From positions 3,667-67,666 of the forward strand of contig JADFLW010000007.1 in NCBI GenBank assembly GCA_022564195.1: a stretch of DNA of 64,000 nucleotides, written 5' to 3'. Origin of the DNA: Patescibacteria group bacterium. Its GTDB lineage: Bacteria; Patescibacteriota; Microgenomatia; UBA1400; Chisholmbacteraceae. Shown here one piece after another: positions 5,036 to 60,361 of this stretch (its first letter is position 1; each line of letters opens with the position of its first letter). A program made the position numbers and the translations under genes. The notes below the pieces were generated by a model. It saw nothing but the letters and a program-made list of their open reading frames with translations. It made no database searches and was not told where the DNA came from.

Positions 5036-5043
5036 ATGCTCTT

Positions 5044-5811: not shown

Positions 5812-5987
5812 GGTTTCTTATTCCTTATCCTATGATTCGTTCGCAACAAAAAACGATCCGGAGGGATCGCTTCTTACGTCTACCCAATCCGTCTTCTCTT
5901 GCTCTCTTATTTCGATTTGCGTCGAGTTCCCAACATTACCTCCTCTTTGCAGAAGATCGGGAGTAGACTTATGCTATCGATGGCAGT

Positions 5988-9845: not shown

Positions 9846-10325
9846 TTACCACCGGAAATGGGCAAACGCGCGATTGGCTTCTGCCATCTTGTGCGAGGTG
9901 ATCTTTCTTTGGAATGCCAATCCTTCGCCATTGGCCGCATCCATCAATTCTTTTGCCAACTTTTCGGCAAACGTGTGGTACTCGCTGTTCGGACGGTTTC
10001 TTGCCCCTCGAACTAACCAGCGGATTGCAAGTGATAACGCTCTTCGTCCCTTGATTGGCGTTGGGACCTGGTAGGACGCACCCCCCACTCTGCGGGAACG
10101 AACTTCCATTTGGGGTGTGACGTTGCGCACTGCGGTTTCGAAAAGCTCGATCGGATCTTTCCCCTGTTTTTCCCTGATGATGTCGAATGCAGAGTAGACA
10201 TTGCCTTGAGCCACAGTTTTCTTCCCATGCTTCATCACAGTACTTACTAGCATTGCTACTATCGTGCTCCCATACACGGGATCTGGCTCTACTTCTCTAG
10301 GAGTTATTCTTCCTGTTCTCGGCAT
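9846..10325 (-). CDS. rpsG: 30S ribosomal protein S7
   Basis: 159 aa ([18 protein letters not shown]...) of the S7 family. Confidence 0.95.
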
Positions 10326-10343
10326 CTTGCGTTCTCTCCCTTT

Positions 10344-10814
10344 TTAGGCTTGGGTTGGAGCCTCTTCTGGTTTTTGGTCTTCTTTAGCACCCGGGACTGC
10401 GATTTTGCCTCCCTTTCGGGTTCCGTACTTTGAACGGCCTTTTTTGCGGTCTTCCACCCCTGTCGCGTCGTACACACCCCGAATTATATGGTATTTCACT
10501 CCAGGCAAATCCTTCACCCTTCCGCCGCGGACCAAGACGATTGAGTGCTCGGCAAGTTCATGGCCTTCTCCAGGAATGTAGGCGGTGATCTCTTGTTTGT
10601 TGCTTAACCTGACCCTTGCCACTTTCCGAAGTGCCGAATTGGGTTTTTTTGGTGTCATGGTTTTGACCACGATGCAGACCCCGCGTTTCTGGGGGTTTAC
10701 CGTGTGAACCATCGTGCGACTCTGCGTATTGAACGAGCGTCGCAGGGCGGTGGCTTTGATTTTTTTTCGCACTTTTTTTCGTCCTTTTCGGACAAGTTGG
10801 TTTATCGTTGGCAT
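10344..10814 (-). CDS. rpsL: 30S ribosomal protein S12 (with internal insertion and C-terminal extension)
   Basis: 156 aa with [22 protein letters not shown] and [12 protein letters not shown]. An SD-like AGGGAG lies ~7 nt upstream. Confidence 0.95.
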
Positions 10815-10836
10815 CTTTTTTCTCCCTTTCTTAACG

Positions 10837-10858
10837 AAAAACAGCGGCGCTGCCGCTG
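10837..10858 (-). terminator. intrinsic terminator or attenuator-like hairpin (7-bp stem CAGCGGC/GCCGCTG, 3-nt loop) followed on the minus strand by UUUUU, 20 nt upstream of the rpsL RBS
   Basis: Perfect inverted repeat at 10842-10848/10852-10858 with an A5 run on the plus strand at 10837-10841. It lies downstream of rpoC. Confidence 0.45.
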
Positions 10859-11027
10859 CATGGAAGGGATTTTAAAACGAATTTTTTTTATCCTCCCGTT
10901 TGCAATGGACTCTTGCGCCTCGATCTATAATGTTCCGAGACGAACTTGTATTGCGCAAGTTCTCCTGCCATCTAAGCACATTTTACCACATCTTCTCCTG
11001 ATCTCTCAAGGAAAACGCAGGCTGGTC

Positions 11028-21774: not shown

Positions 21775-21975
21775 CTACACTTCTTCAAACAACGCGCGTC
21801 TGTACTTTTCAGTCTTGGGATCGAAAATAAAAATCCTCCCGCATTTGCAGGTAACCTTTTTTGATCCGTCTTTGCGTTTTACTCGTTTCCCTTTCGCGAG
21901 TGGTGTTCCGCAACCAGCGCATTGTCCCTTGGAGAGGAGCCAAGCTTGGACGGGCGCAATGATGTTTTTAAGCAT
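21775..21975 (-). CDS. small zinc-ribbon protein (CxxC...CxC)
   Basis: 66 aa with CAGCG...CKCG cysteine pairs and a basic character. Confidence 0.5.
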   Translation of the reverse strand: MLKNIIAPVQAWLLSKGQCAGCGTPLAKGKRVKRKDGSKKVTCKCGRIFIFDPKTEKYRRALFEEV

Positions 21976-22401: not shown

Positions 22402-23133
22402 TTAATCGACAAGTGCGGCGGTGATAATGCCCCGACGAAGATATGTTCCTGGTGGCGTGCAGGTTATGAGACGAAGATATTCGTTGTCATACGGTTGTTC
22501 TAACACGGAGATGTCGTCCGGTTTAACTTCGACTTTATCTATCACCTGATACGTGTAGGTTATGCCGTCGAATTTGACGATGATCTCATCGCCCATCTCG
22601 AGCGTGGGGATGAGGGAAAAGATTGCCATATAATTGGTTGGGCTGAAGAACTGAGGCAGGATGGAATGGCCGAAAATAACCGGTGCTCCAGTTTCCCCCG
22701 GAAGCGCGGTTCCGGGGTAGTGGATAAGGCTTTTTTTTAGATCCTCTCCATTTATTTCTACAACAGCATCTTTGATGTTGAATTTTGGAATCGAAAGGGT
22801 GTAATGGGTAATTCGGGATTCCGTCTTTCTGGAAAATTTGGCTTTCGGAAACCAATTTTGTGGACGAGTCAAATCCTGGTTGATCGTGCTTTCCAAGCTG
22901 TCCTCTTTTCCTGAAACTGGAACAGGGCTTAAAAATTCATACTGTTTCAGAGTGGGAGCAGTGAAGAGTTCATAGGAGAGAATCGGCCATAGCACATTTG
23001 CAACCAGCACTATTCCGGATATGATCAGGCCTCTAGATAGTACAGACATCAATCTCGAACTGACTCTGACCTTCCGACTTGTCTTCGGGCTTGCTGTTTG
23101 CGGATGGGCTTTGACGTAACGGTACAATGTCAT
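22402..23133 (-). CDS. sortase (transpeptidase)
   Basis: N-terminal membrane anchor, catalytic His (VIFGHS), the TLxTC-type motif LRLITCTPPG, and a downstream Arg (LRRGII). Confidence 0.8.
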   Translation of the reverse strand: MTLYRYVKAHPQTASPKTSRKVRVSSRLMSVLSRGLIISGIVLVANVLWPILSYELFTAPTLKQYEFLSPVPVSGKEDSLESTINQDLTRPQNWFPKAKFSRKTESRITHYTLSIPKFNIKDAVVEINGEDLKKSLIHYPGTALPGETGAPVIFGHSILPQFFSPTNYMAIFSLIPTLEMGDEIIVKFDGITYTYQVIDKVEVKPDDISVLEQPYDNEYLRLITCTPPGTYLRRGIITAALVD

Positions 23134-25475
23134 TCGTCTCTTTCTATCCTGATTTCGATTGTGATGTTCTCAGCTTTTCTGGGGAAAGTTTTTAGTCTTG
23201 CTGGCAGCGCTTCCGGTGTGATCTTGACCTCTGCCTTAGAAAAATTCGGCAACGATCCCAGGTACTTTTCGACAAGCTGTGGATGCTTTCCAGTGAGCTT
23301 GCGTTTTATCTCCTGTTCTTCAATTCTAGGAATCAATACCGCCTTGTAGACAACCGTTATCCTTGCCAATCCATCCTGGAACTCCACTTCTTTCACTTCT
23401 GCGAAACTTTCATCTTCCTGGAGCCTGAAGTCTTGTGGGATCGCCTCGCTTGATGCAAGGCGCAAAATCTGGTTGTAGTCTTCGTCATCATATGCTAGCG
23501 TTGTTATTTTCGCCTTGATTTTCGCTGAGACAGTCTGGGCCTCCTCTCCGACTTCTCCACTTACTTCGCTTGATAGTACTTCTATTTCTACCCCATCAAC
23601 GAGTACTTTTCTTCCAGGTCCTTCTTGACTTTCCAACTCGTTTGCCGCTTTCTGTTTCAGCTCTTGTTTGAGCTGGTTCAGGAGGTCATCGATATCGTTT
23701 TTGGCAATGGCCTGAATCTCTCGACTCGTCCCGCCGCTGATATTGCTCTCGTTTTTGGCATCGTATGAAGCAGTGGAAAACGCCTTCAAGGTAAAGTCCG
23801 TGTCGGCGGGAAGGTTGTATTCTGTTCCGATCGCCGTTGCTGTTATCGATGCTTTGGCCTTCCCGAATGTCGTCGTCACGGCCTCATCTGACTCCTGGGA
23901 ACTGGCCGAAGCCACCGATACCTCGCTATCTAGAGAAAATGCGAGTTTGTTTGGTCCAACGAGCATTGTCCCTGCAGCGAATGTTTTTGCTGCGGATGTC
24001 TTGTTATAGACCGATACTTCCCCTTTGGCTTTTTCTCCGACCAGTTTGCTGCCCGTCGTCTCTTTTTCTTTTTCTCCTTCGAGTTCCATCCCGACGATTT
24101 TTCCAGGTATCCGATTTTCTGCGGCAACAACTTGGTTGCTCTTAGGATCGATGGTGATGATGAGCTCCGTTTCGAGCGTTTTGGGTCTGACGTAGAGCAC
24201 GATTTGGGCTCTTGGTATTGTCCAATATCCGTACATTACCGCTGCTGCGCTGAGCACAAAGAACGCTATCACAATACCAATCGTCATCTTTAGCCTCGAG
24301 TCTAACAGGTCGCTTGGCCGAGGAATCCTTAATCTTGGAAGACGCATCATGCGGGGAATCATGGATGTGAGACTTATCAATTTCGCGCTCCATGCTTCTT
24401 TCCCTTCGGGGGTCTCAACACTTACTTCTTCTTTCGCTTGTTCTTCTGGGCTCGGTGGTGTTCTCGGTTTTGCTTCCTCTTCTTTGGGTTTCTCTTCTTT
24501 GGGTTCCTCTTTCTTCGCAACTTCTTGGGCAACATCGACATCAGTTTTGAATCCTATCTCCTCTGCTGTGGGAATCGTTTCTTCTGGAAGCGCTTCTTTT
24601 CCTTCCACCTCTGGTGGAGCCTCTTCTTTTTCCTCTTTCTCTTTTTCTTCCTCTTCGATTATTTCGAATCCTAACGCCTTGGCAGCCTCCGCCCCTCCCC
24701 CAATTGCCACGGCCTTGATTGTCACCTGCTTCTCCAACACCTCAACTTTTGGAAAATGGAGAAACGGGAGCTTCTCAAGCCAGTCGCAGGAGAGAAGGTT
24801 TTGCTTGAGACTTTCGAGATCAAGCGTGCCATTGAAAAGCAACATTCGTGACGGCATATTCTCCTCTATCTCAAAACGCGCCAGTCCTTCTTCAACATCG
24901 GCACCAATGTCTTCGCTTCGGGATACCGTTTGGCTTCCTAGAATTTTCCCTACGTTTACGAGGGTAACCTGAATCTCTGATTCGGTCACAAGAATCAAGA
25001 TTGCGGTTGGTGGCGTGCCTTCTTGCTGTTTGAGTAAATGAACGATGGCTTCGCTGGTCACAACGAATCCTATTGGTTCGAATTCAAGCTTTTCCGAAAT
25101 CCGTTTGAGGATTTTGGCATAGTCCTTTGTAATGGTCTCTCCCGCCACCCAACTTTCTTGCAGGCCGAAGATGACTTTGTTCGGTTCTGGTTCTGCATCG
25201 GCAAGGGCTTTCTCGAGTGATGCGTCAATTGCCGTGAGCAGCGAGTCAATTGAGTCTTTTTCTGTCTTCCATTCTTCTGTTGCTCCTAACTTTACGATTT
25301 GCGTTTGGCCATCCACAACCTGCCAGACAGCAGTGGTCACGGTTTCTGTCCCGATTTCAATTGCCAAGAATTGCTCTTGCGTTTTTTCTTTCGTGGTGAA
25401 TTTTGATAAGATGTTCGGAAGATTCATATTTTCACCAACACAAATCCACTCTTTAAGCGGTTGTCTATTTTTCAT
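23130..25475 (-). CDS. actin-like ATPase (PilM/FtsA-like) fused via an E/K-rich linker to a PilN-like TM segment and a large extracytoplasmic domain
   Basis: N-terminal LAIEIGTETVTT...VAIGGGAEAAKALGF matches the actin-fold start and C-terminal GGG motif of FtsA/PilM. An acidic/lysine low-complexity region (EEEEKEKEEKEE...) follows. Then RPSDLLDSR plus a TM helix (IGIVIAFFVLSAAAVMY) resembles the PilN N-terminus, and a ~370-aa C-terminal domain follows. Confidence 0.5.
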   Translation of the reverse strand: MKNRQPLKEWICVGENMNLPNILSKFTTKEKTQEQFLAIEIGTETVTTAVWQVVDGQTQIVKLGATEEWKTEKDSIDSLLTAIDASLEKALADAEPEPNKVIFGLQESWVAGETITKDYAKILKRISEKLEFEPIGFVVTSEAIVHLLKQQEGTPPTAILILVTESEIQVTLVNVGKILGSQTVSRSEDIGADVEEGLARFEIEENMPSRMLLFNGTLDLESLKQNLLSCDWLEKLPFLHFPKVEVLEKQVTIKAVAIGGGAEAAKALGFEIIEEEEKEKEEKEEAPPEVEGKEALPEETIPTAEEIGFKTDVDVAQEVAKKEEPKEEKPKEEEAKPRTPPSPEEQAKEEVSVETPEGKEAWSAKLISLTSMIPRMMRLPRLRIPRPSDLLDSRLKMTIGIVIAFFVLSAAAVMYGYWTIPRAQIVLYVRPKTLETELIITIDPKSNQVVAAENRIPGKIVGMELEGEKEKETTGSKLVGEKAKGEVSVYNKTSAAKTFAAGTMLVGPNKLAFSLDSEVSVASASSQESDEAVTTTFGKAKASITATAIGTEYNLPADTDFTLKAFSTASYDAKNESNISGGTSREIQAIAKNDIDDLLNQLKQELKQKAANELESQEGPGRKVLVDGVEIEVLSSEVSGEVGEEAQTVSAKIKAKITTLAYDDEDYNQILRLASSEAIPQDFRLQEDESFAEVKEVEFQDGLARITVVYKAVLIPRIEEQEIKRKLTGKHPQLVEKYLGSLPNFSKAEVKITPEALPARLKTFPRKAENITIEIRIERDE

Positions 25476-48687: not shown

Positions 48688-50355
48688 TTACCCAGCGGGT
48701 TTTTCTATGTTCGTTGATTCCAATAGTTCTTCTGACTCTTCAAGAACTTTTCTCCAGTTCCCGACGCGCCTGCCCAACGTCATCAACTCTGCCAGCTGGG
48801 TGATGCGCAAGAGGTTTGAGAGGTTAATATATACCACCATTCCGATGGCAAGGACGCTCACCGTCAGCAACAAGAGGTTTAGGGTTCTCGTGGTATCAAG
48901 GATGAAGCGGTCAATAATGCGCATCGGTATCCAGAGAAAAACTCCAGTCGCTGCGGTTGCGAACACCATTTTCATTATTGGAAGGATGAACTTGGAAGTG
49001 ATGATTTCAACTTTTCGATTTAAAAGCACAATGAGCAAGAAAGCGTGTACCAGTGTTGATGCTGCAAGGGCTAATCCTAGGCCGATGACGCCAAATCCCA
49101 TCGTCTGGGAAAAGAGGATGCTTAATGCAACGGTCAGTGCGGCTGCGATTGTCGCGGTGATCAATGGCGTTTTCGTATCGTGGAGCGCATAAAATGCTCG
49201 GGTTAAGACACCGGTAACGGCTTGGGTTGGAATCGCGAGTGCAAGGAATGCTACGGTTTTGCTCGTCAAGAGTGTTGCTTCCCATGGGAAGTTGCGGGCT
49301 CCAAAGGCGATACGAACGACCGGGAGTCGCAAAACGAGGATGATTGCGGCGGCGGGAAGAGAAAGATACAAGACTTGGTGAAGCGAGGATTGCAGCGTCT
49401 TTTGAAACTCTTCCTTTTTATCCGAGGATATTTCTGAACTCAGGGTCGGAAAGGCTGCTTGGCCGATTGTCGTCCCGAAGAGCGTCACCGGTAGTATGTA
49501 TAACTGTCTTGCAAAATTGAAAATCGTTAATGACCCCGCCGCCAGCGCTGTGGCAATAAAGACTGCAATGAAGCGCTCTACTTGTCCAACCGCCAACGTG
49601 AGTGACCTTAATGGCATGAGCTTTCTTATCTCTCTCACTCCGGGATGACTCCAGTTGAAGCGAAGGCTATAGCGAAACCCCAATCTTCTTGCAAGTGGGA
49701 TTTGGATGAGAAAGTGCAACATTGCCCCAATGACCCCTCCGATTGCAGGACCGAAAATCTCAAAATGTGGGGTGAGGAATATGATGCCGCCGATTATCCC
49801 TAGGTTGTACACAACCGGCGCGAGTGCTGGAACGAGAAACCGTTGGTGCGACTGGATGATTGCCGTGAGGAATCCTGAGATGGCAAAAAATACTTGAGCA
49901 AAAAGCGTGATTCGCATGAGCTTTGTCAACAGCATTATGTTTTCTGGGTCTAGTGATGGTGCGATGATGCTCGATAAAATTCCGCTTGCGAGAAAGACGA
50001 TTACAACGAGAACCAAAAATACGGCTGTGATTCCATTCATTGTGGCGGAGGCGAGCATTGAAGCCTCTTTTTCTCCTTTTTTCAGGTAGTGTGAAAAAAC
50101 TGGGATAAAGGCTGCTGAGAGAGCCCCAATGATTAAAAGTTGAAAGAGGGTATCCGGGATGACGAAGGCGGCAAAATATGCGTCCAATTGTGATTCGCGA
50201 CCGCCAAAAAATGTTGCTGCCAGTAAGCGATTGCGGATTAAACCTAGCAATCCTGAAGTTGCGTATGCGGCCATAATGATAAACGCCGCCGAAAGGATGT
50301 TTGTCTGGCGACGCATCATGAGAAGCCGGCTGTTTCTCAATAAGTTCTTTACCAT
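48688..50355 (-). CDS. murJ: lipid II flippase MurJ (MviN)
   Basis: 555 aa with ~14 TM helices and a MurJ N-terminal pattern (ILSAAFIIMAAY, RLLAATFFGG). Confidence 0.85.
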   Translation of the reverse strand: MVKNLLRNSRLLMMRRQTNILSAAFIIMAAYATSGLLGLIRNRLLAATFFGGRESQLDAYFAAFVIPDTLFQLLIIGALSAAFIPVFSHYLKKGEKEASMLASATMNGITAVFLVLVVIVFLASGILSSIIAPSLDPENIMLLTKLMRITLFAQVFFAISGFLTAIIQSHQRFLVPALAPVVYNLGIIGGIIFLTPHFEIFGPAIGGVIGAMLHFLIQIPLARRLGFRYSLRFNWSHPGVREIRKLMPLRSLTLAVGQVERFIAVFIATALAAGSLTIFNFARQLYILPVTLFGTTIGQAAFPTLSSEISSDKKEEFQKTLQSSLHQVLYLSLPAAAIILVLRLPVVRIAFGARNFPWEATLLTSKTVAFLALAIPTQAVTGVLTRAFYALHDTKTPLITATIAAALTVALSILFSQTMGFGVIGLGLALAASTLVHAFLLIVLLNRKVEIITSKFILPIMKMVFATAATGVFLWIPMRIIDRFILDTTRTLNLLLLTVSVLAIGMVVYINLSNLLRITQLAELMTLGRRVGNWRKVLEESEELLESTNIEKPAG

Positions 50356-50473: not shown

Positions 50474-50716
50474 ATGCCTATTACGAAATCGGCAAGAAAA
50501 GCCTTGCGTCGCGACCGTCGACGAACCCAGGTGAATAAACCAATCCGTACGCGGATGATGAGGCTTCTACGTACTGCTTTCGATGAGCCTTCTGGTCAAA
50601 ATATTGCGGCAGCGTTCTCTGGAATTGACCGTGCCACAAAAAAGCGTATTTTCCATCAGAATCGGGCGGCGCGTCTGAAATCTCGTCTCATGAAGGCAAC
50701 ACGGCGGACAAAATAA
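50474..50716 (+). CDS. rpsT: 30S ribosomal protein S20
   Basis: 80 aa starting MPITKSARKALRRDRRRTQVNKPIRTRMMRL, matching the S20 N-terminus pattern. Confidence 0.85.
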   Translation: MPITKSARKALRRDRRRTQVNKPIRTRMMRLLRTAFDEPSGQNIAAAFSGIDRATKKRIFHQNRAARLKSRLMKATRRTK

Positions 50717-50825
50717 TCTCTCCGTTTTCGCTTCCGAACACTTCGGCGGCCTGGTCGGCGGATTTCCGCTCAGAGAGCTTCAATCTTTTGACAACCTTAT
50801 CCCTGGAACCTATACTTAGATTGTC

Positions 50826-51425
50826 ATGGCTGCCCGCAGACCGAATATTGATCTTTTGGCCCGAGAAGACTTCTCTCAACGCGCCCTTGGTCGTTTATTG
50901 CTTTGGGTTCTGACAGTCGGACGCTTCATTGTCATTTTTACGGAGCTTATCGTCATTGCTGGTTTCATTACCAGAGTTTTTCTTGATCGAAACCTTCATT
51001 CCGTCAACGAGGATCTTGTTGAGCAAAAAACGATTCTTGCCTCCTATCAACCTGTGGACCTTCGTTTCCGTCAAGTCCACCAGCAACTTCAATCGTATTC
51101 TCGCATTAATGAAGATCGGTTTGACATTTCAAAACTGTTGGATGATCTGATTACAATCGCGCCTCTTGATATGCGTTTTGAATCTTTGCATATAGATCCG
51201 CAGTCCGTGGATATTGTCGCCATTGCGCTTTCTCCAAGTGGCTTTTCGGCGTTTTTGACCCAACTCCAAGCGTTTCCAGACTTTAGCGATTTGGTTTTGG
51301 AATCTGTCGAAACTGGCAGTGCCCGAGATCCAAGCATCAAGTTTCGACTTACTGCGGACTTTAAGATCGCGGCAGTTCCAACCAGACCCGCGGAGACAAA
51401 TGTTTCTGGAGAAGCTATTGAGTAA
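50826..51425 (+). CDS. pilN: type IV pilus assembly protein PilN-like
   Basis: N-terminal PNIDLLAREDF, which resembles the INLLP motif. A single TM helix is followed by an extracytoplasmic domain; 199 aa. Confidence 0.6.
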   Translation: MAARRPNIDLLAREDFSQRALGRLLLWVLTVGRFIVIFTELIVIAGFITRVFLDRNLHSVNEDLVEQKTILASYQPVDLRFRQVHQQLQSYSRINEDRFDISKLLDDLITIAPLDMRFESLHIDPQSVDIVAIALSPSGFSAFLTQLQAFPDFSDLVLESVETGSARDPSIKFRLTADFKIAAVPTRPAETNVSGEAIE

Positions 51426-51436
51426 GGAGATTTGTT

Positions 51437-52099
51437 ATGGCTGCTGACTATCAGAAAACCTTCCGGCGCTATGGTCGTTTTTACAAAGGCGCGCGTAAGT
51501 ATATGCAGCGGAAGGAGGTTCTTGTTTCGACGAATGTCATGCTCACCCTTTTCGCCATTTCGTTCTTTGCGGTTTTTGCTATTCGGCCTACGGCATTGAC
51601 GATATCCAGGCTTTGGAGAGAAATTAAAGACAAAAAAACCGTTCAAGCAGTGCTTGAGGAGAAGATTGGTGATCTTTTAGAAGCGCAATCAGTACTAGTA
51701 TCGCTAGAGAATGATCTGGTTCTCCTTGATCATGCTATCCCTCCCACTGTGGAATTTTCTCGGCTGGTGCGTCTCGTCGAATACCTTGCTTCTACTCATG
51801 GATTGCAGATGCCTTCCAACCGTTTCAATGACATCGAGCTCTATGTTTCAGAAGAGACCGCGACCGCGTCTGCGGCGCAGATTGAAACACATTTGTTTAC
51901 CCTGGCGCTGAAGGGGTCATTTTCCGAGATACGGTCATTTGTTGCTGATCTTGAACGACTCGATCGCTTAATTTCCATCACCTCTGTTTCTGTCCAGCCC
52001 TCAAGAAAACAGGTGCGTGAAGGTGTCTTTATCTTAGAACTAGGATTGGATGCCGAGGCTTATTCATTTCCTGGAGGATCTCAATTAGACCAACAATAA
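51437..52099 (+). CDS. pilO: type IV pilus assembly protein PilO-like
   Basis: A TM helix, a coiled coil, and a C-terminal domain; its size and position follow pilN. Confidence 0.5.
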   Translation: MAADYQKTFRRYGRFYKGARKYMQRKEVLVSTNVMLTLFAISFFAVFAIRPTALTISRLWREIKDKKTVQAVLEEKIGDLLEAQSVLVSLENDLVLLDHAIPPTVEFSRLVRLVEYLASTHGLQMPSNRFNDIELYVSEETATASAAQIETHLFTLALKGSFSEIRSFVADLERLDRLISITSVSVQPSRKQVREGVFILELGLDAEAYSFPGGSQLDQQ

Positions 52100-52108
52100 T
52101 ACCAGGTT

Positions 52109-52453
52109 ATGCCATCACGCGACCGCCTACAACGCCAGCTCTTGGAACTTTCCATTGTCACGCTTGTGACTATTATCATCTGGACAGGCTATGAGGTTTA
52201 TAATGCACTCACCCAGCCAGTTGAGACGAGGGTGACGAAAGCTGAACTTCAACCCCTTCCTTCTTCATTGGATCTTGAACAGTTCGATCCATTGCGGGAT
52301 CGCCTTGTCATTGATGATGAGGCGATCGCTCGCTTTTCTTTTTCCTCCGATGAATTCCCTGAGGCCCCGGTAGTGCCAACTCCAACACCAACCGCTCCTT
52401 CCCCGGAAGCTACCCCTTCCTCCGAGGCCACACCTTCCGCCTCAACTCCATAA
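52109..52453 (+). CDS. small membrane protein with a Pro/Thr/Ser-rich C-terminal tail (pilus- or glycosylation-associated)
   Basis: An N-terminal TM helix (LELSIVTLVTIIIWTGY); the C-terminus is PTPTPTAPSPEATPSSEATPSASTP. Confidence 0.45.
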   Translation: MPSRDRLQRQLLELSIVTLVTIIIWTGYEVYNALTQPVETRVTKAELQPLPSSLDLEQFDPLRDRLVIDDEAIARFSFSSDEFPEAPVVPTPTPTAPSPEATPSSEATPSASTP

Positions 52454-52490
52454 ATGCCCAGTACCTTTCTCAATTTGCAGTTGAGAAAGG

Positions 52491-53297
52491 TTGAGGTTTA
52501 GTGCTAGGATTATTTCGATGCTGAAGAAACGGATCCCCACCATTCTTGGAATTCTCTTACTTATGGCGGGGATCACTGCTGGTGTTTATCTCGTTGAACT
52601 TGGTCCGCAACCACTCATCACCAAAGCCACTCCGGAAGTTGCTCCATCCCCACTTCCCGTTACCGATATTTCTGATGAGCCTGCCGGATCTGAAAGCCAA
52701 TTCTCCTTGGAATCTTTTCCGCAACCTTCAGTCGAAGAAGGCACAGTTACCATTGACTCACCCGGAGAAGGAGAGGCGATTAATACCCAACTTCCAGAGT
52801 TCTTTGGTGAAGGGCCCCCGGGAACAACGATAGAAATTACCCTTGAATCCCAGCACGAAATCCAAACCACAGTCGCCGTTGATACCACTGGGCAATGGTC
52901 ATGGGTTCCTGATACTGCCGTCGAGCCTGGTGAACACCTCCTGACCCTCAGATGGATCGATACAGGAGGCATTACTCGCACACTCACTCGGCGGTTCGTG
53001 GTTTTTGCGCAAGAAGAGAGCTCTCTGCCCGCCTTTGAAGCAACGCCTTCTGCTGTAACCCCCACTCCCACACCCGTTGAGCTTGCCGCTGTTACCCCAA
53101 CGCCAACCCCAATACCCACGCTGGCACCTGCCGCAACGCCGACTCCCATCCCCCCGACTCTTACACCTACGCCGGTGGCCACTGAGCCCGCACTTCCCGT
53201 TCCGGGAACGGGAATGCTAAGCGTTTGGATTATTTTTGCTGGTATTGGCCTTGCTATTTCGGGGGCTTTCCTTACGCTTCACAACCGAACGTCCTGA
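52491..53297 (+). CDS. surface protein with an Ig-like middle domain, a Pro/Thr-rich stalk and a C-terminal sorting-signal-like segment
   Basis: N-terminal signal/anchor; the PT-rich tract is TPTPTPVELAAVTPTPTPIPTLAPAATPTPIPPTLTPTPV. The C-terminus reads LPVPGTG, then a hydrophobic helix (MLSVWIIFAGIGLAISGAFLTL), then HNRTS. Confidence 0.55.
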   Translation: MRFSARIISMLKKRIPTILGILLLMAGITAGVYLVELGPQPLITKATPEVAPSPLPVTDISDEPAGSESQFSLESFPQPSVEEGTVTIDSPGEGEAINTQLPEFFGEGPPGTTIEITLESQHEIQTTVAVDTTGQWSWVPDTAVEPGEHLLTLRWIDTGGITRTLTRRFVVFAQEESSLPAFEATPSAVTPTPTPVELAAVTPTPTPIPTLAPAATPTPIPPTLTPTPVATEPALPVPGTGMLSVWIIFAGIGLAISGAFLTLHNRTS

Positions 53298-53417: not shown

Positions 53418-54686
53418 ATGCGCGTAGGGATCGTTGGTGCTGGATTTGTCGGCTTGACTTGTGCATATCGGCTGGCACAAGCGGGTGTCGAAGTCGAGCT
53501 CTATGAGGCCGCAAGCCACAGCGGAGGTTTAGCCAGTGGGTTCTCTCTTCCCGGATGGAAGTGGCCACTGGAGCAATTCTACCATCATATCTTTTCCAAT
53601 GATCGCGCAATCATCCGTCTTTCTCGCGAAGTTGGCTGGCCTCCGATTTTTTTCCGACCGACAACCTCCATCTTTTTCAATGGTCGGATGTATCCGTTTG
53701 ACTCGGCTTTCCATCTTCTCCGCTTTCCTCAGCTTCCCCTCCATGCGAAGCTTCGCATGGGTATCGTGCTCGGGTTTCTTAAGCTTTCCCCGTTTTGGAA
53801 GCCCCTTGAGCGTATCCCGGCACATGACTTTTTGATTCAGACAATGGGTGTTCGTGGTTATGAGGCAATTTGGCAGCCCCTTTTGGTTGGCAAGTTCGGT
53901 CCTTGGGCCCGCGACGTTAATGCCGCATGGTTTTGGGCAAGGATTCATAAACGGACTGCGCGGTTAGGATATTTCCGTCGCGGTTTTCAGGGACTGGCTA
54001 ATCGACTCCATGAATCCATCGTAAACAATGGAGGCGGTATTCATCTTCACTCACCCGTTTCAGCCATCCGTAAAGCAGGCGCACATCTTGCCCTTTCCTC
54101 AACGTTGGGAACGGAGCGATTCGATCGAGTCATCGTCACGACGAGTACGCCGCTGTTTTTAAAGATGGTTAAGGGCTTGCCGAGCCGTTATCGATCGCGG
54201 CTTGGGCGGCTGCGGTCTCTGGATGCGTTGGTGGTGATCCTCATTCTTAAAACACCGGTTATGGATGGTGTGTATTGGCTGAATGTTACTGACCAGCGTC
54301 TTCCCTTTGTGGGAGTGATGGAGCACACGAATATGATTGACCCGAAATACTATGGCGGAAATCACATTGTCTATCTTGGCACGTATCTTCCTCCCGACCA
54401 CCGATACTTTCTGCTGTCGAAAGATGCAGTTGTCCGGTTGGCTATACAGCAACTTAAAGCACTCACACGGAATTTTGACGAATCCGATATCGTGGAAACT
54501 CGCGTCCATCGCGGGCGTGGAGCCCAACCTATTATTCCTGTCAACTATTCTCGACTTCGTCCAACGATGGAAACGCCAATTGATCATCTTTTCCTTGCAA
54601 ATATGAGCCTGGTCTATCCATGGGATCGCGGGACGAATTATGCCGTCGAGTTAGGGGAAAGGGCCTACCGGACTCTACTTTCATGA
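53418..54686 (+). CDS. FAD/NAD(P)-binding oxidoreductase of the Glf/amine-oxidase superfamily (UDP-galactopyranose mutase-like)
   Basis: Rossmann N-terminus (RVGIVGAGFVGLTCAYRLAQAG). HHIFSNDRAI resembles the HIFHTNDK motif of Glf. GYEAIWQ resembles GYTEKQW. Confidence 0.5.
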   Translation: MRVGIVGAGFVGLTCAYRLAQAGVEVELYEAASHSGGLASGFSLPGWKWPLEQFYHHIFSNDRAIIRLSREVGWPPIFFRPTTSIFFNGRMYPFDSAFHLLRFPQLPLHAKLRMGIVLGFLKLSPFWKPLERIPAHDFLIQTMGVRGYEAIWQPLLVGKFGPWARDVNAAWFWARIHKRTARLGYFRRGFQGLANRLHESIVNNGGGIHLHSPVSAIRKAGAHLALSSTLGTERFDRVIVTTSTPLFLKMVKGLPSRYRSRLGRLRSLDALVVILILKTPVMDGVYWLNVTDQRLPFVGVMEHTNMIDPKYYGGNHIVYLGTYLPPDHRYFLLSKDAVVRLAIQQLKALTRNFDESDIVETRVHRGRGAQPIIPVNYSRLRPTMETPIDHLFLANMSLVYPWDRGTNYAVELGERAYRTLLS

Positions 54687-56395
54687 AACGTATGGGGCGA
54701 GTGTTTGTTTTTTTTAAGTCTTCTCATTTAAGCCTCTACTCTGCTGGTTTAATTCTCCTCACCGCTTTGGGTGGGTTTTTACGCTTCTATAGCCTTGATT
54801 GGGACTCGGGACTTTTTTTTCATCCAGATGAGCGCAACATTGCCGCTGCTGTCTCGCGGATTCACTTCTTCGATCAACTCGATCCCGGTTTTTTCGCTTA
54901 TGGTGGACTGCTCATCTATACCTATAGAGCTGTGGGTGAGCTTGTCTCCTTCATTACTCAAGATCCCTCTTGGGTCTCTTCATGGGGCAATATCAACATC
55001 ATAGGACGGTTTACATCGGCACTTTTTTCAACCTTGACTATTCCTGCTGTGTACCTGCTCACAAGAACCGTGTTTGAAAAGAAGATTCTTGCTCTTTTTG
55101 CAAGCTTGATCGCGGCTTTTACTGTGAGCTTTATCCAAACCGCCCATTATGCAACGACTGAGAGTCTTTTGACTTTCCTTTCCGTTGTCCTCGCTCTTTT
55201 ATCACTTCGGTTGCTCAGAAGACCCACTCTTCCGTCTTATCTTGTCTGTGGGCTTGTTTATGGACTGGCAGTGGCAACCAAAATGAGCGGTTTGTCAATT
55301 CTTGTCTTTCCACTTACCGCCCATCTTCTTGTCGTTTTTGGTCAAGCGCGCAGCTTGCGAGTGTTTTTTCATAACGGTTTGTTGCTGATTGCTTTTCTTG
55401 CGATCAGCGGTCTTGTTTTTGTTGTTTTTTCTCCCTATACGTTTTTGGACTGGGGTGCTTTTATGGAGTCGATGCGCTATGAATCAAGGGTGGCAACAGG
55501 GAAATACTCCGTCCCTTACACCCTGCAATTCACCCATACACTGCCGTACCTATTCCAGCTAAAAAATCTGTTTTGGCAACTGGGGCCTATTGCTTTCTTC
55601 TCCATCTTTGGATTCGTCCTGCTTCCCTTCGTTTGGGGCCGTAGAAATCCTGCGAAGCTTCTACTCTTTTTTTCCTTTCCGACCATCTATTTTCTTTATG
55701 TCGGTTCCTGGCATGCCAAATTCATCCGTTTCATGGTTCCGATTTTGCCATTCTTGATTATTGCTGCAAGTGTTGTGCTTTTTTCTCTTTACTCAAGACG
55801 GAAGCTTGTTGGAGGTGGGTTCATCGTTTTGCTTTCAGTTTCGACCGTTCTTTGGGCCCTTGCCTTTTTCTCCATCTATAGAAGAGAACAAACACGTATT
55901 GCGGCATCAAGATGGATATACCAACATATTCCTTCTGGCAGCAGGATCTTCGGCGAGCATTGGGATGACGGTCTGCCGGTTTCTTTACCTCACTCGGATC
56001 TCTCTCCCTCTCGATATGATATCGAGCAACTCACCATCTACGAGCCCGATACCGAAGAAAAGCTTGACTACTTTGCAGAAAAATTGTCTCTGGCCGATTA
56101 CCTTGTGATTAACAGCAGAAGGCTTTATGGCACCTTGATTCATCTAGAAGAGCGCTATCCTCTCACGAGTCGGTACTACAGCCTTTTATTCTCCGGGAAG
56201 CTTGGGTACGAGAAAGTGGCGGAATTTACCTCTTACCCGTCTCTCTTTGGGGTGACGATCAATGACGATGCAAGTGAGGAGACGTTCCAAGTCTATGATC
56301 ATCCAAAAGTCATGATCTTTGCCAAAACGAGACTGCAGACCCAAGATCGTTTCGCTGAACTGCTTCGTGATGAGGTGTTCCCGACCCTTCGGTAA
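54683..56395 (+). CDS. GT-C fold glycosyltransferase, PMT_2/ArnT-like (GT39/GT83-type, polyprenyl-phosphate-sugar dependent)
   Basis: Multi-pass membrane protein with an FFHPDERN first-loop acidic motif. Its ATG overlaps the upstream stop codon (ATGA). Confidence 0.6.
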   Translation: MKRMGRVFVFFKSSHLSLYSAGLILLTALGGFLRFYSLDWDSGLFFHPDERNIAAAVSRIHFFDQLDPGFFAYGGLLIYTYRAVGELVSFITQDPSWVSSWGNINIIGRFTSALFSTLTIPAVYLLTRTVFEKKILALFASLIAAFTVSFIQTAHYATTESLLTFLSVVLALLSLRLLRRPTLPSYLVCGLVYGLAVATKMSGLSILVFPLTAHLLVVFGQARSLRVFFHNGLLLIAFLAISGLVFVVFSPYTFLDWGAFMESMRYESRVATGKYSVPYTLQFTHTLPYLFQLKNLFWQLGPIAFFSIFGFVLLPFVWGRRNPAKLLLFFSFPTIYFLYVGSWHAKFIRFMVPILPFLIIAASVVLFSLYSRRKLVGGGFIVLLSVSTVLWALAFFSIYRREQTRIAASRWIYQHIPSGSRIFGEHWDDGLPVSLPHSDLSPSRYDIEQLTIYEPDTEEKLDYFAEKLSLADYLVINSRRLYGTLIHLEERYPLTSRYYSLLFSGKLGYEKVAEFTSYPSLFGVTINDDASEETFQVYDHPKVMIFAKTRLQTQDRFAELLRDEVFPTLR

Positions 56396-56406
56396 CGAGC
56401 GTTTTT

Positions 56407-58554
56407 TTGACCGCTTTGCATCTTTCATCTTCCTCTATACAATATGTGGGCATTCGTATGCATGAGCTGGTGAATACATTTTCCTGGTGGGCTGTTCTTT
56501 CCGGTCTTGGGATTTTGGCCTTTCCTATCACCTATTGGCTGTTTGGTCGATTTTGGGATCGTGGCTGGGCATTTGCAAAGATCTTAGGGCTTGGGCTGCT
56601 CACGTACTGGGTGTGGATTGTGGGAAGTTTGCGAATTCTTGCATTCGAAACATTCACCCTCTGGATTGGTATTGTTCTTATTGGATATCTTTCCTATCTC
56701 GTTTGGTCCAAGCATCAAGAATCTTTATGGAATTTTGTTCAGGATCATTGGCGTTTGATCGTGTTTGAGGAGTTCCTTTTTGGTATCGGTCTCTTGTTCT
56801 GGTCTTGGGTGCGGGCTCATCAGCCGGACATCAATGGCCTTGAAAAATTCATGGATTTCGGATTTGTCAATTCTCTTTTACGTACACGCTTCTTTCCTCC
56901 GCCCGATATGTGGCTAGCGGGGGAGACCATCAACTATTACTACTTCGGACATCTAGTAGTTGGGGTTGTTACCAAACTCTCAGGGATTTCCTCGGCTGTG
57001 ACGTATAACCTTATGATCGCCACTCTTCTGGGACTTGCTTTTACCGGGGCTTTTTCCTTGGGCGGAACATTGGCTCAGCACGTCATTCCGACTTTGACAC
57101 GGAAGCGGCGATTCAGCTTCATGATTCTGGCTGGTTTGACTTCTGGATTGGTGTTCACGTTCGCTGGCAATTTACACACTGTTGTCACCGTCATCTCCAA
57201 GGGAGCTGATTCATACTGGTACCCCGATGCCACTCGCTACATTCCCTACACCATCCACGAGTTCCCGCTCTACAGCTTCGTTGTTTCGGATTTGCATGGC
57301 CATGTTAACAATATTCCCTTTGTCCTTTTGATGCTGGCACTTTTGCTTAGCTTTCTTCTGGAACATGGAAATCGGTGGCGTTTTTCTTTCCGTTCGCCAT
57401 CGGTCTATTGGCGCTTGATTGCCTTGGGTCTGACGTTTGGGATTCTTTACATGACCAACGCCATGGACGCGCCAATTTATCTTTTTCTTGTTGGTATGAG
57501 CTTTCTTGTTTCGATAATTGGCAAGCGTCCATTAAAAAAAGCTGTTTTGGCCTCCGGGCTCGCTTTTGGGATCATTGTGTTCTCTGCTTTCGTCCTTTCT
57601 CTTCCGTTTCATCTTTCTTTTACCCCTTTCACTCAAGGTGTTGCTTTCGTGGAGGCTCGTTCTTCCATCCTGAAGCTTTTGGTTCTGTGGGGTTTCTTTT
57701 TATTTGTCGGTTTGGTGTTTGTTCTTCTTGTTCTCCAACAACGTTTCCAGCGCCATTCTCGCAAGCCTTTTCTCAATGTCTTGCTTCGTCGGTTCATGCT
57801 TGCTGTCTTTGCAACCGCAGTTGTCTTGGTCGTCATTCCAGAATTTGTTTACTTCAAAGACATCTATATTGCTGAATTTCATCGGGCGAATACGATGTTC
57901 AAATTGGTGTATCAGTCTTTCGTTCTGATGTCTTTGATGACAGGGCCAGTGTTTGTTGTGTTGCTCTGGCGTTTTACCACTTCAAGTGGTCGGCTTTTGC
58001 GCTTTGGGCTTTTGGCTTTGGTTTTCGCATTTATTGTTGGCTTGGGGAGTGTGTTGATGTACCCGTATTTTGCGGTGCACTCCTACTACAATCGCCTGCA
58101 AACGCTTCAGGGTCTCGATGGTCTATCTTGGATGGCGCGTCGCTATCCTGATGATTATGCTGCTATTTCTTGGCTGCGTGATGAGGTTTCCGGTCAACCG
58201 GTTATCGCGGAAGCCGTGGGCGAGAGTTATACCGATTTTGCGCGGGTTTCGGCGAATACCGGATTACCCACGGTTCTCGGGTGGCGGGTGCACGAATGGT
58301 TGTGGAGAGGCAGCTTTGATGAGCCGGGCCTTCGCACGGGTGAGGTTGAGAGGCTTTATACCACAGCGGATCTCCACGATGCCTGTGCCATTATTGAAAA
58401 GTATAGGATTGCGTATGTTTTCGTTGGTGCTTTGGAGCGCCAACAATACTCTAGACTCAATGAAGACAAGTTTAGCCGGATTGGAAACGAAGTGTTCTCT
58501 CAAGGAGATACACGGATTTATAGGATGCGCACTCCTTGTGGTGTCTCTTCCTAG
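56407..58554 (+). CDS. DUF2298 (Chlor_Arch_YYY) domain membrane protein, GT-C-like
   Basis: 715 aa, highly hydrophobic, with the hallmark INYYYFGH motif and a C-terminal soluble domain. Confidence 0.6.
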   Translation: MTALHLSSSSIQYVGIRMHELVNTFSWWAVLSGLGILAFPITYWLFGRFWDRGWAFAKILGLGLLTYWVWIVGSLRILAFETFTLWIGIVLIGYLSYLVWSKHQESLWNFVQDHWRLIVFEEFLFGIGLLFWSWVRAHQPDINGLEKFMDFGFVNSLLRTRFFPPPDMWLAGETINYYYFGHLVVGVVTKLSGISSAVTYNLMIATLLGLAFTGAFSLGGTLAQHVIPTLTRKRRFSFMILAGLTSGLVFTFAGNLHTVVTVISKGADSYWYPDATRYIPYTIHEFPLYSFVVSDLHGHVNNIPFVLLMLALLLSFLLEHGNRWRFSFRSPSVYWRLIALGLTFGILYMTNAMDAPIYLFLVGMSFLVSIIGKRPLKKAVLASGLAFGIIVFSAFVLSLPFHLSFTPFTQGVAFVEARSSILKLLVLWGFFLFVGLVFVLLVLQQRFQRHSRKPFLNVLLRRFMLAVFATAVVLVVIPEFVYFKDIYIAEFHRANTMFKLVYQSFVLMSLMTGPVFVVLLWRFTTSSGRLLRFGLLALVFAFIVGLGSVLMYPYFAVHSYYNRLQTLQGLDGLSWMARRYPDDYAAISWLRDEVSGQPVIAEAVGESYTDFARVSANTGLPTVLGWRVHEWLWRGSFDEPGLRTGEVERLYTTADLHDACAIIEKYRIAYVFVGALERQQYSRLNEDKFSRIGNEVFSQGDTRIYRMRTPCGVSS

Positions 58555-59642
58555 TTCGCGTTGCTGGTCATGTTTTCGTAGAATAATGAGTCCACGTAGC
58601 TGTGGACCTCGTCCCAACTCCCGCCTCTACCAATGAGCACCCATTGTCCATCATATTCTGCCGGTGGCGGATTGACGAGTAGGCCCTCTTCTCCAGTTTC
58701 CTGGTCTTGCTCCTTAAGAATACCGTATCGCAGGTTTTCTCTCCGGGGTTGTATGGCAAGTTTGGCAAGGCTTACGTATTCGGCTTCACCAAGATCCGTC
58801 CTTACTGATCCTGTGTATGTTTGGACTAACTCTTTGATTTTTGTCGGAGAGAGTATGGTTTCCAAACTCAGTAGCTTGTTTTTGAATGCCGCGAGTACTT
58901 GCTGTTGGCGTTGAGCGCGGGCAAAGTCTGTTCCCTGAGGTCCCTTAGCGTTGCGGGATCGAACGTACTTTAAGGCTCGCTCTCCACTCATGTTTTGTGA
59001 ACCGCTATCGAAGCGCAGATGTTCGTAGCGAAGCTCCTCGGGCTCTGCGTCTTCCATCCCGGGGATGGGATATTTGTAATCGTCAAAGGTTTCGGGAACA
59101 TTGATTTTTATCCCTCCAACGAGATCGATGGCGTGTTTGAAGCCGTCAAAATCGATGCTGACCGCGTAATGGACGGGTTGGCCAATGATCTCTTCCACCG
59201 CAGCTTTAGCAAGCACCAGTCCCCCGCCTTCTTGTCTCTGCTCGCCGTAGTAGTAGGTCGCGTTTATCTTGGTTTTCAATGAATTGATCCAGATATCCCT
59301 CGGGATTGAGAGAACCAGGCTGTCGGTTGAGGCTAAATCGACTGAGACGACGATGATGCTATCGGTCAACTCTGCTCCTTTGTGATCAACACCGCCCATT
59401 CCCAACAGTACGATATTCGTTCTTGAGCGGGTTGAGCGGAGCACACCTTCCGGATTCTTCACTAGAGAAAAGACAGTTGCCGGTCCGCGGGCAAGCTTTA
59501 CTACCATGGTCAATGCGGGTCGGATCGCCGCATAGACAGCAACGATCACCGCTGCCAGTGTGGTTGTTACGATCAGCGTGCGTACCGCGGTTCGGTGTCT
59601 CGTTAAGCGTCGTTTCAGCTTTCCTACCCAGTACTTTCTCAT
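58551..59642 (-). CDS. LCP family (LytR-CpsA-Psr) glycopolymer phosphotransferase
   Basis: TM anchor followed by NIVLLGMGGVD...SIIVVSVD...LSIPRD...KINATYYYG...VSIDFDGFKHAIDLVGGIKINV, the LCP core. The likely ATG at 59642 forms an ATGA overlap with the tpiA stop. Confidence 0.85.
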   Translation of the reverse strand: MRKYWVGKLKRRLTRHRTAVRTLIVTTTLAAVIVAVYAAIRPALTMVVKLARGPATVFSLVKNPEGVLRSTRSRTNIVLLGMGGVDHKGAELTDSIIVVSVDLASTDSLVLSIPRDIWINSLKTKINATYYYGEQRQEGGGLVLAKAAVEEIIGQPVHYAVSIDFDGFKHAIDLVGGIKINVPETFDDYKYPIPGMEDAEPEELRYEHLRFDSGSQNMSGERALKYVRSRNAKGPQGTDFARAQRQQQVLAAFKNKLLSLETILSPTKIKELVQTYTGSVRTDLGEAEYVSLAKLAIQPRRENLRYGILKEQDQETGEEGLLVNPPPAEYDGQWVLIGRGGSWDEVHSYVDSLFYENMTSNAN

Positions 59643-60361
59643 GGTGTTTCTGTGGTCTTTATTATCGTCTGGTTGGCCATTCTTATCATCTTCAGCCATT
59701 CTGCGGCGTTGAGACTTGCGCTTCCCGGAAGAACGCCGTCAATGAGCGGTTCTTCTAAAAATATGGCAATGTTGTGGCTTTTCACACTGCCTCCGTAGAT
59801 CACGGTTGGGGCCTCCGTCTCTTTTTTTATTTTGACTATAGCTTCTTTCACTTCATCAATTGGCGCTGGCTCTCCTTTCCCGATGGGGCCGATTTGCTTG
59901 CTGATTGCCTCGGGGGGCTCGTACATGAGTATTGACTTATTGATCATCCCCTCATCCAGTGCATTCAGCTGTCGTCTCCAGTTGTCTGCGTCTACGGCAA
60001 TGATGGGGGTAATGCCGTTATCAAGTGCTTGAACGGCTTTCTGCGCTACTTTAATCTCGGTTTCTTGGAAATAGCGGCGGCGTTCCGAATGCCCCAAAAT
60101 TGTGTATTCTACCAAACTCCTCATCATGCGGGCGGTTACTTGGCCGGTGTAGGCTCCATCACCATAGGGTGAAAGATCCTGGCAGCCGAGAGTGAGTTCT
60201 GACATCTGGTCTCTGAAAAGCGTGAGGTGGATGAAGGATGGGCAGAGCACCACTTTCAATCGTTTATCAATTGTGGGTTTCTCCTTCTTCACCTCCTCAA
60301 TCCAGGAACGGGCCTCTTTTAGGGTTTTGTTTGCCTTCCAGTTGCCGATGAGGTATTTCAT
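59639..60361 (-). CDS. tpiA: triosephosphate isomerase
   Basis: GNWKAN, GHSERR and YEPPEAI motifs are present. The likely ATG is at 60361; the track begins at a TTG at 60370. Confidence 0.9.
   Translation of the reverse strand: MKYLIGNWKANKTLKEARSWIEEVKKEKPTIDKRLKVVLCPSFIHLTLFRDQMSELTLGCQDLSPYGDGAYTGQVTARMMRSLVEYTILGHSERRRYFQETEIKVAQKAVQALDNGITPIIAVDADNWRRQLNALDEGMINKSILMYEPPEAISKQIGPIGKGEPAPIDEVKEAIVKIKKETEAPTVIYGGSVKSHNIAIFLEEPLIDGVLPGSASLNAAEWLKMIRMANQTIIKTTETP

Follow-up and report, generated by a model that had tools for sequence, protein, structure and literature searches.

A pilN-pilO pair without pilM in Patescibacteria: a conserved four-gene cassette linked to murJ

Introduction

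A central role in host attachment and DNA uptake is ascribed to the type IV pili of Patescibacteria, and PilM, PilN, and PilO are usually assumed to be encoded together. In known systems, PilN and PilO are bitopic proteins that pair through coiled coils and outer domains and form the membrane platform of type IV pilus machines, and the INLLP-type cytoplasmic peptide of PilN is gripped by the actin-like protein PilM. A pilN-pilO pair at positions 50826-52099 of a 64-kb stretch of a Patescibacteria (Microgenomates-type) contig, here called the window, has no pilM beside it. What does such a pair serve, and where is its cytoplasmic partner encoded? The same genes are present on a near-identical 69-kb scaffold in ENA.

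The sequence-only reading of this locus had proposed a split or rewired pilus alignment subcomplex, in which a 781-aa protein encoded 25 kb away on the same contig (protein X) might fuse PilM-like and PilN-like parts. The surveys described below place the pair in a four-gene cassette that recurs in about 80 species, almost always beside murJ, and point to X as a member of a separate envelope protein family.

The PilN-PilO pair

The first gene of the pair, pilN (50826-51425, + strand; 199 aa), matches PF05137 with 34.8 bits against a cut-off of 22.8 (E 1.7e-8). The second, pilO (51437-52099, + strand; 220 aa), matches PF04350 with 33.3 bits against a cut-off of 22 (E 6.4e-8), and its product also has a weak match to T2SSM_b (E 0.014). 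Family profiles built from about 35 members each find solved structures: M. xanthus PilN 3jc8_Na for PilN (E 9.7e-7), and for PilO M. xanthus PilO 3jc8_Oa (E 5.4e-12), P. aeruginosa PilO 2rjz (E 1.8e-5), and 5uvr (E 7.8e-4). Because Pfam cut-offs are exceeded and solved structures are matched, the identification is sound, and both products are classed by homology as genuine PilN and PilO family members, in agreement with the sequence-only reading. PilO is predicted to be bitopic, with a transmembrane (TM) helix at about residues 30-50 followed by a coiled coil and the PilO domain.

The PilN of the window begins with the cytoplasmic peptide MAARRPNIDLLA, a derived form of the INLLP type; a TM helix spans about residues 22-50, and the PilN domain lies outside the cytoplasm. 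Its pre-TM segment reads RRPNIDLLA, within which PNIDLLA had been noted as INLLP-like, and the wider family bears out this resemblance. The motif [IVLF]x[LFI]xP stands directly before the TM helix in 77 of 79 members, typically in the form (K/R)xININLxPKDPFF. HMMER aligns ININLLP of the family opposite IRINLLP of M. xanthus PilN, and the motif also resembles INFLP of E. coli HofN. In the sub-clade of the window it takes the form RRPxIDLLARED, and I8 and L10 are invariant in close homologues.

The INLLP-type peptide of PilN is the segment bound by PilM, as in PilM-PilN of T. thermophilus and in the PilM:PilN1-12 complex of P. aeruginosa (5EOU). Strict conservation of the peptide thus points to an actin-like cytoplasmic partner encoded elsewhere, and a PilM-type protein at another locus is expected for the PilN of the cassette. 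Searches for such a partner and for other pilus genes covered the window and 10-kb flanks of the surveyed loci; in the window, they were made on open reading frames (ORFs) of at least 80 aa. In the window, a phmmer search with an FtsA-like query and an hmmsearch with the profile of the actin-like (ASKHA) domain of X matched only the 781-aa protein. No FtsA/PilM-like ORF was found by phmmer with the FtsA-like query in the 80 species loci and their flanks, and the absence of a pilM next to pilN, as first noted, holds for all of them. Searches for T2SSE-type (PilB/PilT) Walker A motifs matched only FtsK in the window and no ORF in the 80 loci with flanks. Pilin signals were likewise missing, both as class-III signals in the window and as pilin-signal ORFs at the 80 loci and in their flanks.

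The murJ-linked cassette

The distribution of the pair was surveyed by a PilN-alignment scan of one genome per GTDB species. The scan returned 80 loci, 79 of them with a callable PilN, in taxa that include Pacebacteria, Beckwithbacteria, Woesebacteria, and Microgenomates metagenome-assembled genomes (MAGs). The 10-kb flanks were annotated by phmmer, and denominators vary with the feature counted (75, 76, 68, or 79). Many of the species-representative MAGs that carry the cassette (L015-L094) bear the title 'uncultured Pseudomonadales' or 'Gammaproteobacteria', and a complete genome among the records bears 'TM6'. The NCBI organism names on these Patescibacteria-type records look unreliable.

The usual gene order in the 79 species-representative genomes is murJ - pilN - pilO - g3 - Big_13, where g3 is a small membrane protein gene and Big_13 encodes an Ig-like surface protein. 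The pilO gene directly follows pilN in 76 of 76 loci. The lipid II flippase gene murJ lies within two genes upstream of pilN in 73 of 75 loci, and in 61 it is directly upstream on the same strand. A small + strand gene occupies the g3 position in most of the 79 loci; phmmer finds it to be of the window type in 30 loci, and a second sequence cluster occurs at position +2 in 45 others. A Big_13 protein of 370-630 aa is encoded within five genes of pilN in at least 64 of 68 loci. The genes are tightly packed, with median gaps of 41 nt between murJ and pilN, 2 nt between pilN and pilO, -4 nt between pilO and g3, and 92 nt between g3 and Big_13.

At a more distant homologue (35% identity), the set of pilN, genes of PilO and g3 size, and Big_13 is retained behind smpB. 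Together with the survey, this shows that the unit is a conserved four-gene cassette, and positions 50826-53297 of the window read as one copy of an ancient four-gene operon that is conserved across Patescibacteria and almost always attached to murJ. The survey supports the separation of pilN-pilO from pilM as a fixed, lineage-wide trait rather than a local rearrangement. Of the split or rewired subcomplex suggested earlier, the split from pilM thus stands, whereas rewiring in this genome does not, as the arrangement is shared by the lineage. Within the literature covered, a full-text search for MurJ together with PilN and PilO found no description of the murJ-linked arrangement, and the murJ-linked pilN-pilO-g3-Big_13 cassette is apparently undescribed.

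In the clade of the window, the rpsT-murJ pair is inverted, and murJ (48688-50355, - strand) lies beyond rpsT. It matches TIGR01695 (murJ_mviN) with 285.6 bits against a cut-off of 235.55. The gene for ribosomal protein S20, rpsT (50474-50716, + strand), is upstream of pilN as had been stated; PF01649 is matched by the identical gene in two other loci (L002 and L003). It ends 109 nt before pilN. Across the survey, rpsT adjoins murJ in most of the 79 cassette loci, and phmmer matches it in 63 loci overall. Between rpsT and pilN of the window lies a promoter-like site of near-consensus sigma-70 type, TTGACA-17-TATACT (50788-50816, + strand), identified by consensus match only (11 of 12 positions). 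The site stops 10 nt short of the pilN ATG, which suggests that the pilN transcript may be leaderless or have a very short leader and may be independent of rpsT.

The g3 and Big_13 proteins

The third gene of the cassette, g3 (52109-52453, + strand), encodes a small bitopic protein of 114 aa. Its N-terminal TM helix leads into a short juxtamembrane stretch that is conserved, and its tail is rich in Pro, Thr, and Glu. No family could be assigned, as the protein has no Pfam, NCBIfam, or PDB profile match. It had been proposed as a PilP analogue with a Pro-rich tail. The Pro/Thr-rich tail is confirmed, and by its position alone the protein could be such an analogue, but no PilP match (PF04351) is found at E<=1 in the window protein and 35 family members, nor any other consistent family match, and the protein contains no cysteine and thus no possible lipobox. 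Assignment of g3 as PilP or as a pilin was rejected for want of family matches, a lipobox, and a G/FTLIE prepilin signal.

The fourth gene (52491/52518-53297, + strand) encodes a surface protein of 259-268 aa that matches PF19077 (Big_13) with 32.7 bits against a cut-off of 27. The protein is composed of an N-terminal TM or signal anchor, an Ig-like Big_13 domain, a Pro/Thr-rich stalk, an LPVPGTG motif, and a C-terminal TM helix, and the C-terminal motif and TM helix are conserved across 67 homologues. This gene (52518-53297) and the conserved neighbour murJ (48688-50355) had both been overlooked in the sequence-only reading.

The C-terminus of the Big_13 protein is LPXTG-like. Many members have [IV]Px[ST]G followed by a TM helix, and the window protein has VPGTG. 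The proline of the motif is missing in Pacebacteria-type members (GQYNAGSVGTT), and tails are often acidic. No NCBIfam sorting-signal model matches the Big_13 C-terminus, which may be a novel sorting or anchoring signal. A longer pattern, '...PSTxSG[IV]PVSGSVGTTLALIFGGLFFIISGxWSFWIS', is conserved at this C-terminus in more than 60 species (window 53180-53297; L015-L094).

Downstream of the cassette (53418-59699) are a flavin amine oxidase-like gene, a gene for a PMT_2-type GT-C glycosyltransferase, genes for DUF2298 membrane proteins, and one for an LCP (LytR-CpsA-Psr) protein. A polyprenyl glycosylphosphotransferase gene follows Big_13 in 18 other species loci. By its annotated content, the region downstream of the cassette reads as an envelope-glycopolymer neighborhood.

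Function of the cassette

The favored reading assigns the cassette to the type IV or competence pilus machine of the organism, as its PilN/PilO platform, with PilM and the motor genes elsewhere; we give it about an even chance of being correct. The cassette would supply the membrane platform, and PilM, PilB, PilC, PilT, and the pilins would be encoded at a separate locus. Two further parts, g3 and the doubly anchored Big_13 protein, would be outer components specific to the lineage and would carry the platform into the cell wall, in a cell that has neither an outer membrane nor a secretin. Three published reports fit this reading. A closed Microgenomates genome has a single type IV pilus locus with pilins, PilD, PilB, PilT, PilC, and PilM, and PilN/PilO are not listed there (PMC7143001). 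The PilM, PilN, and PilO families are widespread in the Candidate Phyla Radiation (CPR; PMC6744442), and most Patescibacteria MAGs from groundwater have annotated PilM and PilO (PMC8672522).

Several observations weigh against a pilus platform. Across about 80 species, the cassette is never beside any pilus gene and is almost always beside murJ. Genes for envelope glycans are often near, namely the polyprenyl glycosylphosphotransferase in 18 loci and the PMT_2, DUF2298, and LCP genes in the window. The proximity of murJ and glycan genes means that a cell-wall role fits at least as well as a pilus role. Saccharibacteria keep pilM-pilN-pilO together within their pilus loci (PMC11623550), which suggests that a canonical pilMNO set may coexist with the cassette; the murJ-linked pair would then be a paralogue with another job. 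The Ch65 paper may also have left small, divergent PilN/PilO genes unannotated. Finally, the evidence comes from the loci and their 10-kb flanks.

The cell-wall role can be cast as a pilus-independent envelope module, in which a PilN/PilO-fold scaffold would work with MurJ and peptidoglycan or glycopolymer export and, together with g3, would position or display the Big_13 surface protein. FtsA or another ASKHA protein would grip the INLLP handle, in the way that FtsA binds the N-terminal peptide of FtsN, and FtsA-FtsN peptide complexes (7q6i) are among the Foldseek structural neighbors of the ASKHA class found in X. Such a module is consistent with the close and mostly co-directional murJ linkage (73 of 75 loci, 61 directly upstream on the same strand, 41-nt median gap), with the lack of pilus genes within 10 kb in 80 species, and with the glycan genes downstream. 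It would also account for the co-conservation of g3 and Big_13, which have no counterpart in known pilus machines. However, housekeeping gene order (lepA-rpsT-murJ) is strongly conserved in these small genomes, which makes murJ adjacency alone weak evidence of function, and murJ is inverted away from the operon in the clade of the window itself. The retained, exact PilM-binding motif is most simply explained by PilM. To our knowledge, no PilN/PilO pair has a role outside pili and type II secretion, and this too counts against the module, which we regard as possible though rather doubtful.

The two readings differ in what they imply. Fixed beside murJ in about 80 species, pilN-pilO either belongs to a pilus machine assembled from separate operons with lineage-specific wall-spanning parts, or shows that PilN/PilO folds do a second job linked to the cell wall. 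Both outcomes would alter the scoring of pilus capacity in metagenomic surveys, and the cassette draws attention to two conserved, uncharacterized surface proteins, g3 and Big_13. The Pam pilus system of CPR bacteria was also considered as a candidate and rejected; it consists of chaperone-usher-like proteins and donor-strand pilins, none of which resembles the cassette (bioRxiv 10.64898/2026.03.03.709456).

Protein X

Protein X is encoded on the - strand at 23130-25427 (765 aa as called, with its start at 25427; the ORF to 25475 corresponds to 781 aa). The 765-aa form is identical to NCBI 'hypothetical protein IH980_03050 [Patescibacteria group bacterium]'. From the N-terminus, the protein contains an ASKHA domain (about 24663-25379), a poorly conserved E/K-rich linker (about 24288-24662), a single TM helix (24222-24287), and a 362-aa outer domain (23133-24218), all on the - strand. 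The ASKHA domain was assigned from an AlphaFold2 model, Foldseek, and family conservation, and the outer domain from AlphaFold2 and Foldseek. The linker, helix, and outer domain had been anticipated in the sequence-only reading and are confirmed.

Residues ~17-255 of X are well conserved and are modeled as a two-lobe actin-like core, with a predicted local distance difference test score (pLDDT) of 90.2. The best Foldseek matches are P. aeruginosa PilM 5eoy (E 7.5e-10) and FtsA 3wt0 (E 1.2e-9), with TM-scores of about 0.6 on the query; E values of about 1e-8, within one order of magnitude, are reached by Ppx/GppA, EutJ, and sugar kinases. By DSSP, the unit beta3-alpha-beta-alpha-beta-alpha occurs twice in about 235 residues with no loop longer than 12 residues, which leaves no room for 1C/SHS2 or 2B subdomains. 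The 1C subdomain is the partner-peptide binding site in PilM and FtsA (2YCH, 5EOU). The proposal that the N-terminus is a PilM/FtsA-like actin fold thus holds for the fold but not for the family: PilM_2 (PF11104), FtsA (PF14450), and SHS2_FTSA have no match at E<=1 in X or 42 homologues, NCBIfam models likewise assign neither PilM nor FtsA, and 1C is missing.

Profile comparisons give a similar picture. Against PDB sequences, the N-domain profile finds only a sub-threshold FtsA (E 0.08), and hhalign of the ASKHA domain gives 1.7% probability for E. coli FtsA and 0.1% for HofM. With 94% probability and 26% identity, hhalign aligns lobe II of X with a Patescibacteria FtsA-like protein that has a C-terminal amphipathic helix and a 38-residue lobe-II insert missing from X. 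The X consensus has LALEI at phosphate-1, with E for D, and lacks DxG at phosphate-2 (AILIxxxE), while AGGxEVAKxLG is kept.

The outer domain of X is modeled with a pLDDT of 92. Foldseek matches it over its full length to phage and tailocin baseplate wedge proteins at E 1e-6 to 1e-4, with TM-scores of only about 0.22, and its profile matches TRI-2 (8v3w) at E 3.9e-4. PF04865 (Baseplate J) scores 16 bits on X, below the cut-off of 21.1, and 15 homologues have a precomputed PF04865 match. No PF05137 (PilN) match is found in X. A distant homologue (P0126, 589 aa; locus L095) has the TM helix and baseplate-J-like outer domain without an ASKHA domain or sortase neighbor. In the same locus (4573-5862, 10001-11770), a 429-aa FtsA-like ASKHA protein that matches lobe II of X is encoded 4 kb upstream of P0126. 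The two-protein arrangement hints that X may have arisen by fusion with a reduced FtsA-like domain.

The segment RPSDLLDSR, before the TM helix of X, had been likened to the N-terminus of PilN. The likeness is no more than chance: in 105 homologues the commonest residue of a column reaches at most about 30%, and three columns are 50-70% gaps.

The gene following X encodes a sortase (22402-23133, - strand; PF04203 E 2e-23, TIGR01076 58.5 bits) and overlaps the X stop codon. Synteny was examined in 80 metagenome loci of the X family. A sortase gene comes next after X in 65 of 66 loci, with a median gap of -1 nt, and alaS is directly upstream in 46 of 52. Gene order hardly varies (alaS - X - sortase - ruvX - 66-aa zinc-ribbon ORF - yceG/mltG), and no PilN/PilO profile match lies within 10 kb of X in the 80 loci.

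X had been proposed as a PilM-PilN fusion acting with the separate PilN/PilO pair. In such a model it would be the PilM equivalent, as a PilM-PilN or GspL-like fusion, and would dock the PilN peptide in a rewired alignment complex. PilN requires some ASKHA partner, and X offers one that is membrane-tethered, has its best structural matches in PilM and FtsA, and reaches 94% hhalign probability with an FtsA/PilM_2-type protein; it also lies on the same contig, 25 kb from the cassette. However, its ASKHA domain is a bare two-lobe core without 1C or the phosphate-2 DxG motif, it and 42 homologues have no PilM_2 or FtsA Pfam match, and the hhalign comparisons with E. coli FtsA and HofM are insignificant. 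Its PilN-like motif is unconserved, its outer domain is baseplate-J-like, its ASKHA domain is dispensable in the distant homologue, and its gene is paired with a sortase gene, with no PilN/PilO within 10 kb in 80 loci. The lack of family matches and of 1C, the unconserved motif, the outer domain, and the sortase synteny together argue that X is not a PilM-PilN fusion. Identification of X as the missing PilM or as such a fusion is not supported, and a rewired complex built on it is very unlikely. As judged from domains and gene neighborhood, X belongs to a separate, sortase-coupled envelope protein family outside the pilN cassette.

A broader proposal joins both loci. The PilN-PilO-g3-Big_13 cassette and X with its sortase would be two halves of an unrecognized trans-envelope machine unrelated to type IV pili; taken jointly, this claim is improbable. 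Through its INLLP peptide, PilN would bind an actin-like protein other than PilM, either X or FtsA, and this docking would tie assembly in the cytoplasm both to the export of lipid II by MurJ and to the sortase-dependent attachment of the Ig-like surface protein. If true, PilN and PilO would be general envelope-scaffold proteins rather than pilus parts.

An exhaustive HMMER search with the X ASKHA profile found at least 1,622 representatives at 50% identity (E<=1e-3). ASKHA-TM-baseplate-J proteins followed by a sortase thus form a large, uncharacterized envelope family. Within the literature covered, a full-text search for baseplate J together with sortase and Patescibacteria found no description of the arrangement. 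A word-indexed protein search listed only 107-108 X-family clusters, so that absence from its list does not mean absence of the family, and the co-occurrence of X and the cassette derived from it was discarded because the index is very incomplete (108 of at least 1,622 representatives).

Other features of the X loci concern its neighbors. The 66-aa ORF between ruvX and yceG/mltG (21775-21975, - strand, in the window) carries a zinc-ribbon-like CxxC...CxC pattern and has no Pfam annotation. An ORF of about 66 aa occupies the same position in most of the 80 loci, and the copy in L106 is clearly homologous. In one lineage only (L106 16115-22308; L143; JGI Ga0180437/Ga0180438), type IV pilus genes begin about 4 kb downstream of X-sortase-ruvX. 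This set, found in L106 and L143, comprises PilB (T2SSE and MshEN), PilC (T2SSF), a 278-aa TM protein, and a GFTLIE prepilin-like ORF, and the locus continues past the retrieved DNA. In L005 (8061-9910), on a 773-kb contig, gene calling splits the alaS gene upstream of the X homologue P0014 into four pieces (124, 95, 69, and 159 aa), probably because of frameshifts or an assembly problem.

Comparison with known systems

The closest known counterpart of the cassette is the PilM-PilN-PilO(-PilP-PilQ) alignment subcomplex of type IVa pili in P. aeruginosa, M. xanthus, and T. thermophilus. Both have bitopic PilN and PilO domains, and the INLLP-type N-terminal peptide of PilN is shared with this subcomplex and with pilMNO of Gram-positive and Saccharibacteria type IV pilus loci. 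In both, pilN is followed by pilO and then by two envelope genes, which in the cassette stand at the positions of pilP and pilQ. Unlike the type IVa loci, the cassette has murJ in the place of pilM, and no pilus ATPase, platform, or pilin gene lies within 10 kb of it in about 80 species. Its third and fourth genes encode a small TM protein and an Ig-like Big_13 protein anchored at both ends, not PilP and PilQ.

GspL of type II secretion is a natural PilM-PilN-like fusion. X resembles it in having a cytoplasmic actin-like domain, one TM helix, and an outer domain, and on the GspM side the PilO of the cassette matches T2SSM_b, weakly (E 0.014). However, X lacks an SHS2/1C-type domain, its outer domain is baseplate-J-like rather than ferredoxin-like, and it is paired with a sortase instead of secretion genes.

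FtsA, an actin-like protein of cell division that is tethered to the membrane, binds the N-terminal FtsN peptide. X is likewise attached to the membrane, its ASKHA lobe II matches a Patescibacteria FtsA-like protein, and its gene lies among envelope and division genes (ftsK, a rodZ-like gene, and mltG). X differs from FtsA in lacking the 1C and 2B subdomains and an FtsA Pfam match; where FtsA has an amphipathic helix, X has a genuine TM helix and a large outer domain.

The outer domain of X matches baseplate wedge proteins (gp6/J/gp47, diffocin TRI-2) over its full length. The TM-scores of these matches are low (~0.22). Unlike the wedge proteins, X is chromosomal and lies in a housekeeping neighborhood with no other tail genes nearby, and it joins the outer domain to a TM helix and a cytoplasmic part.

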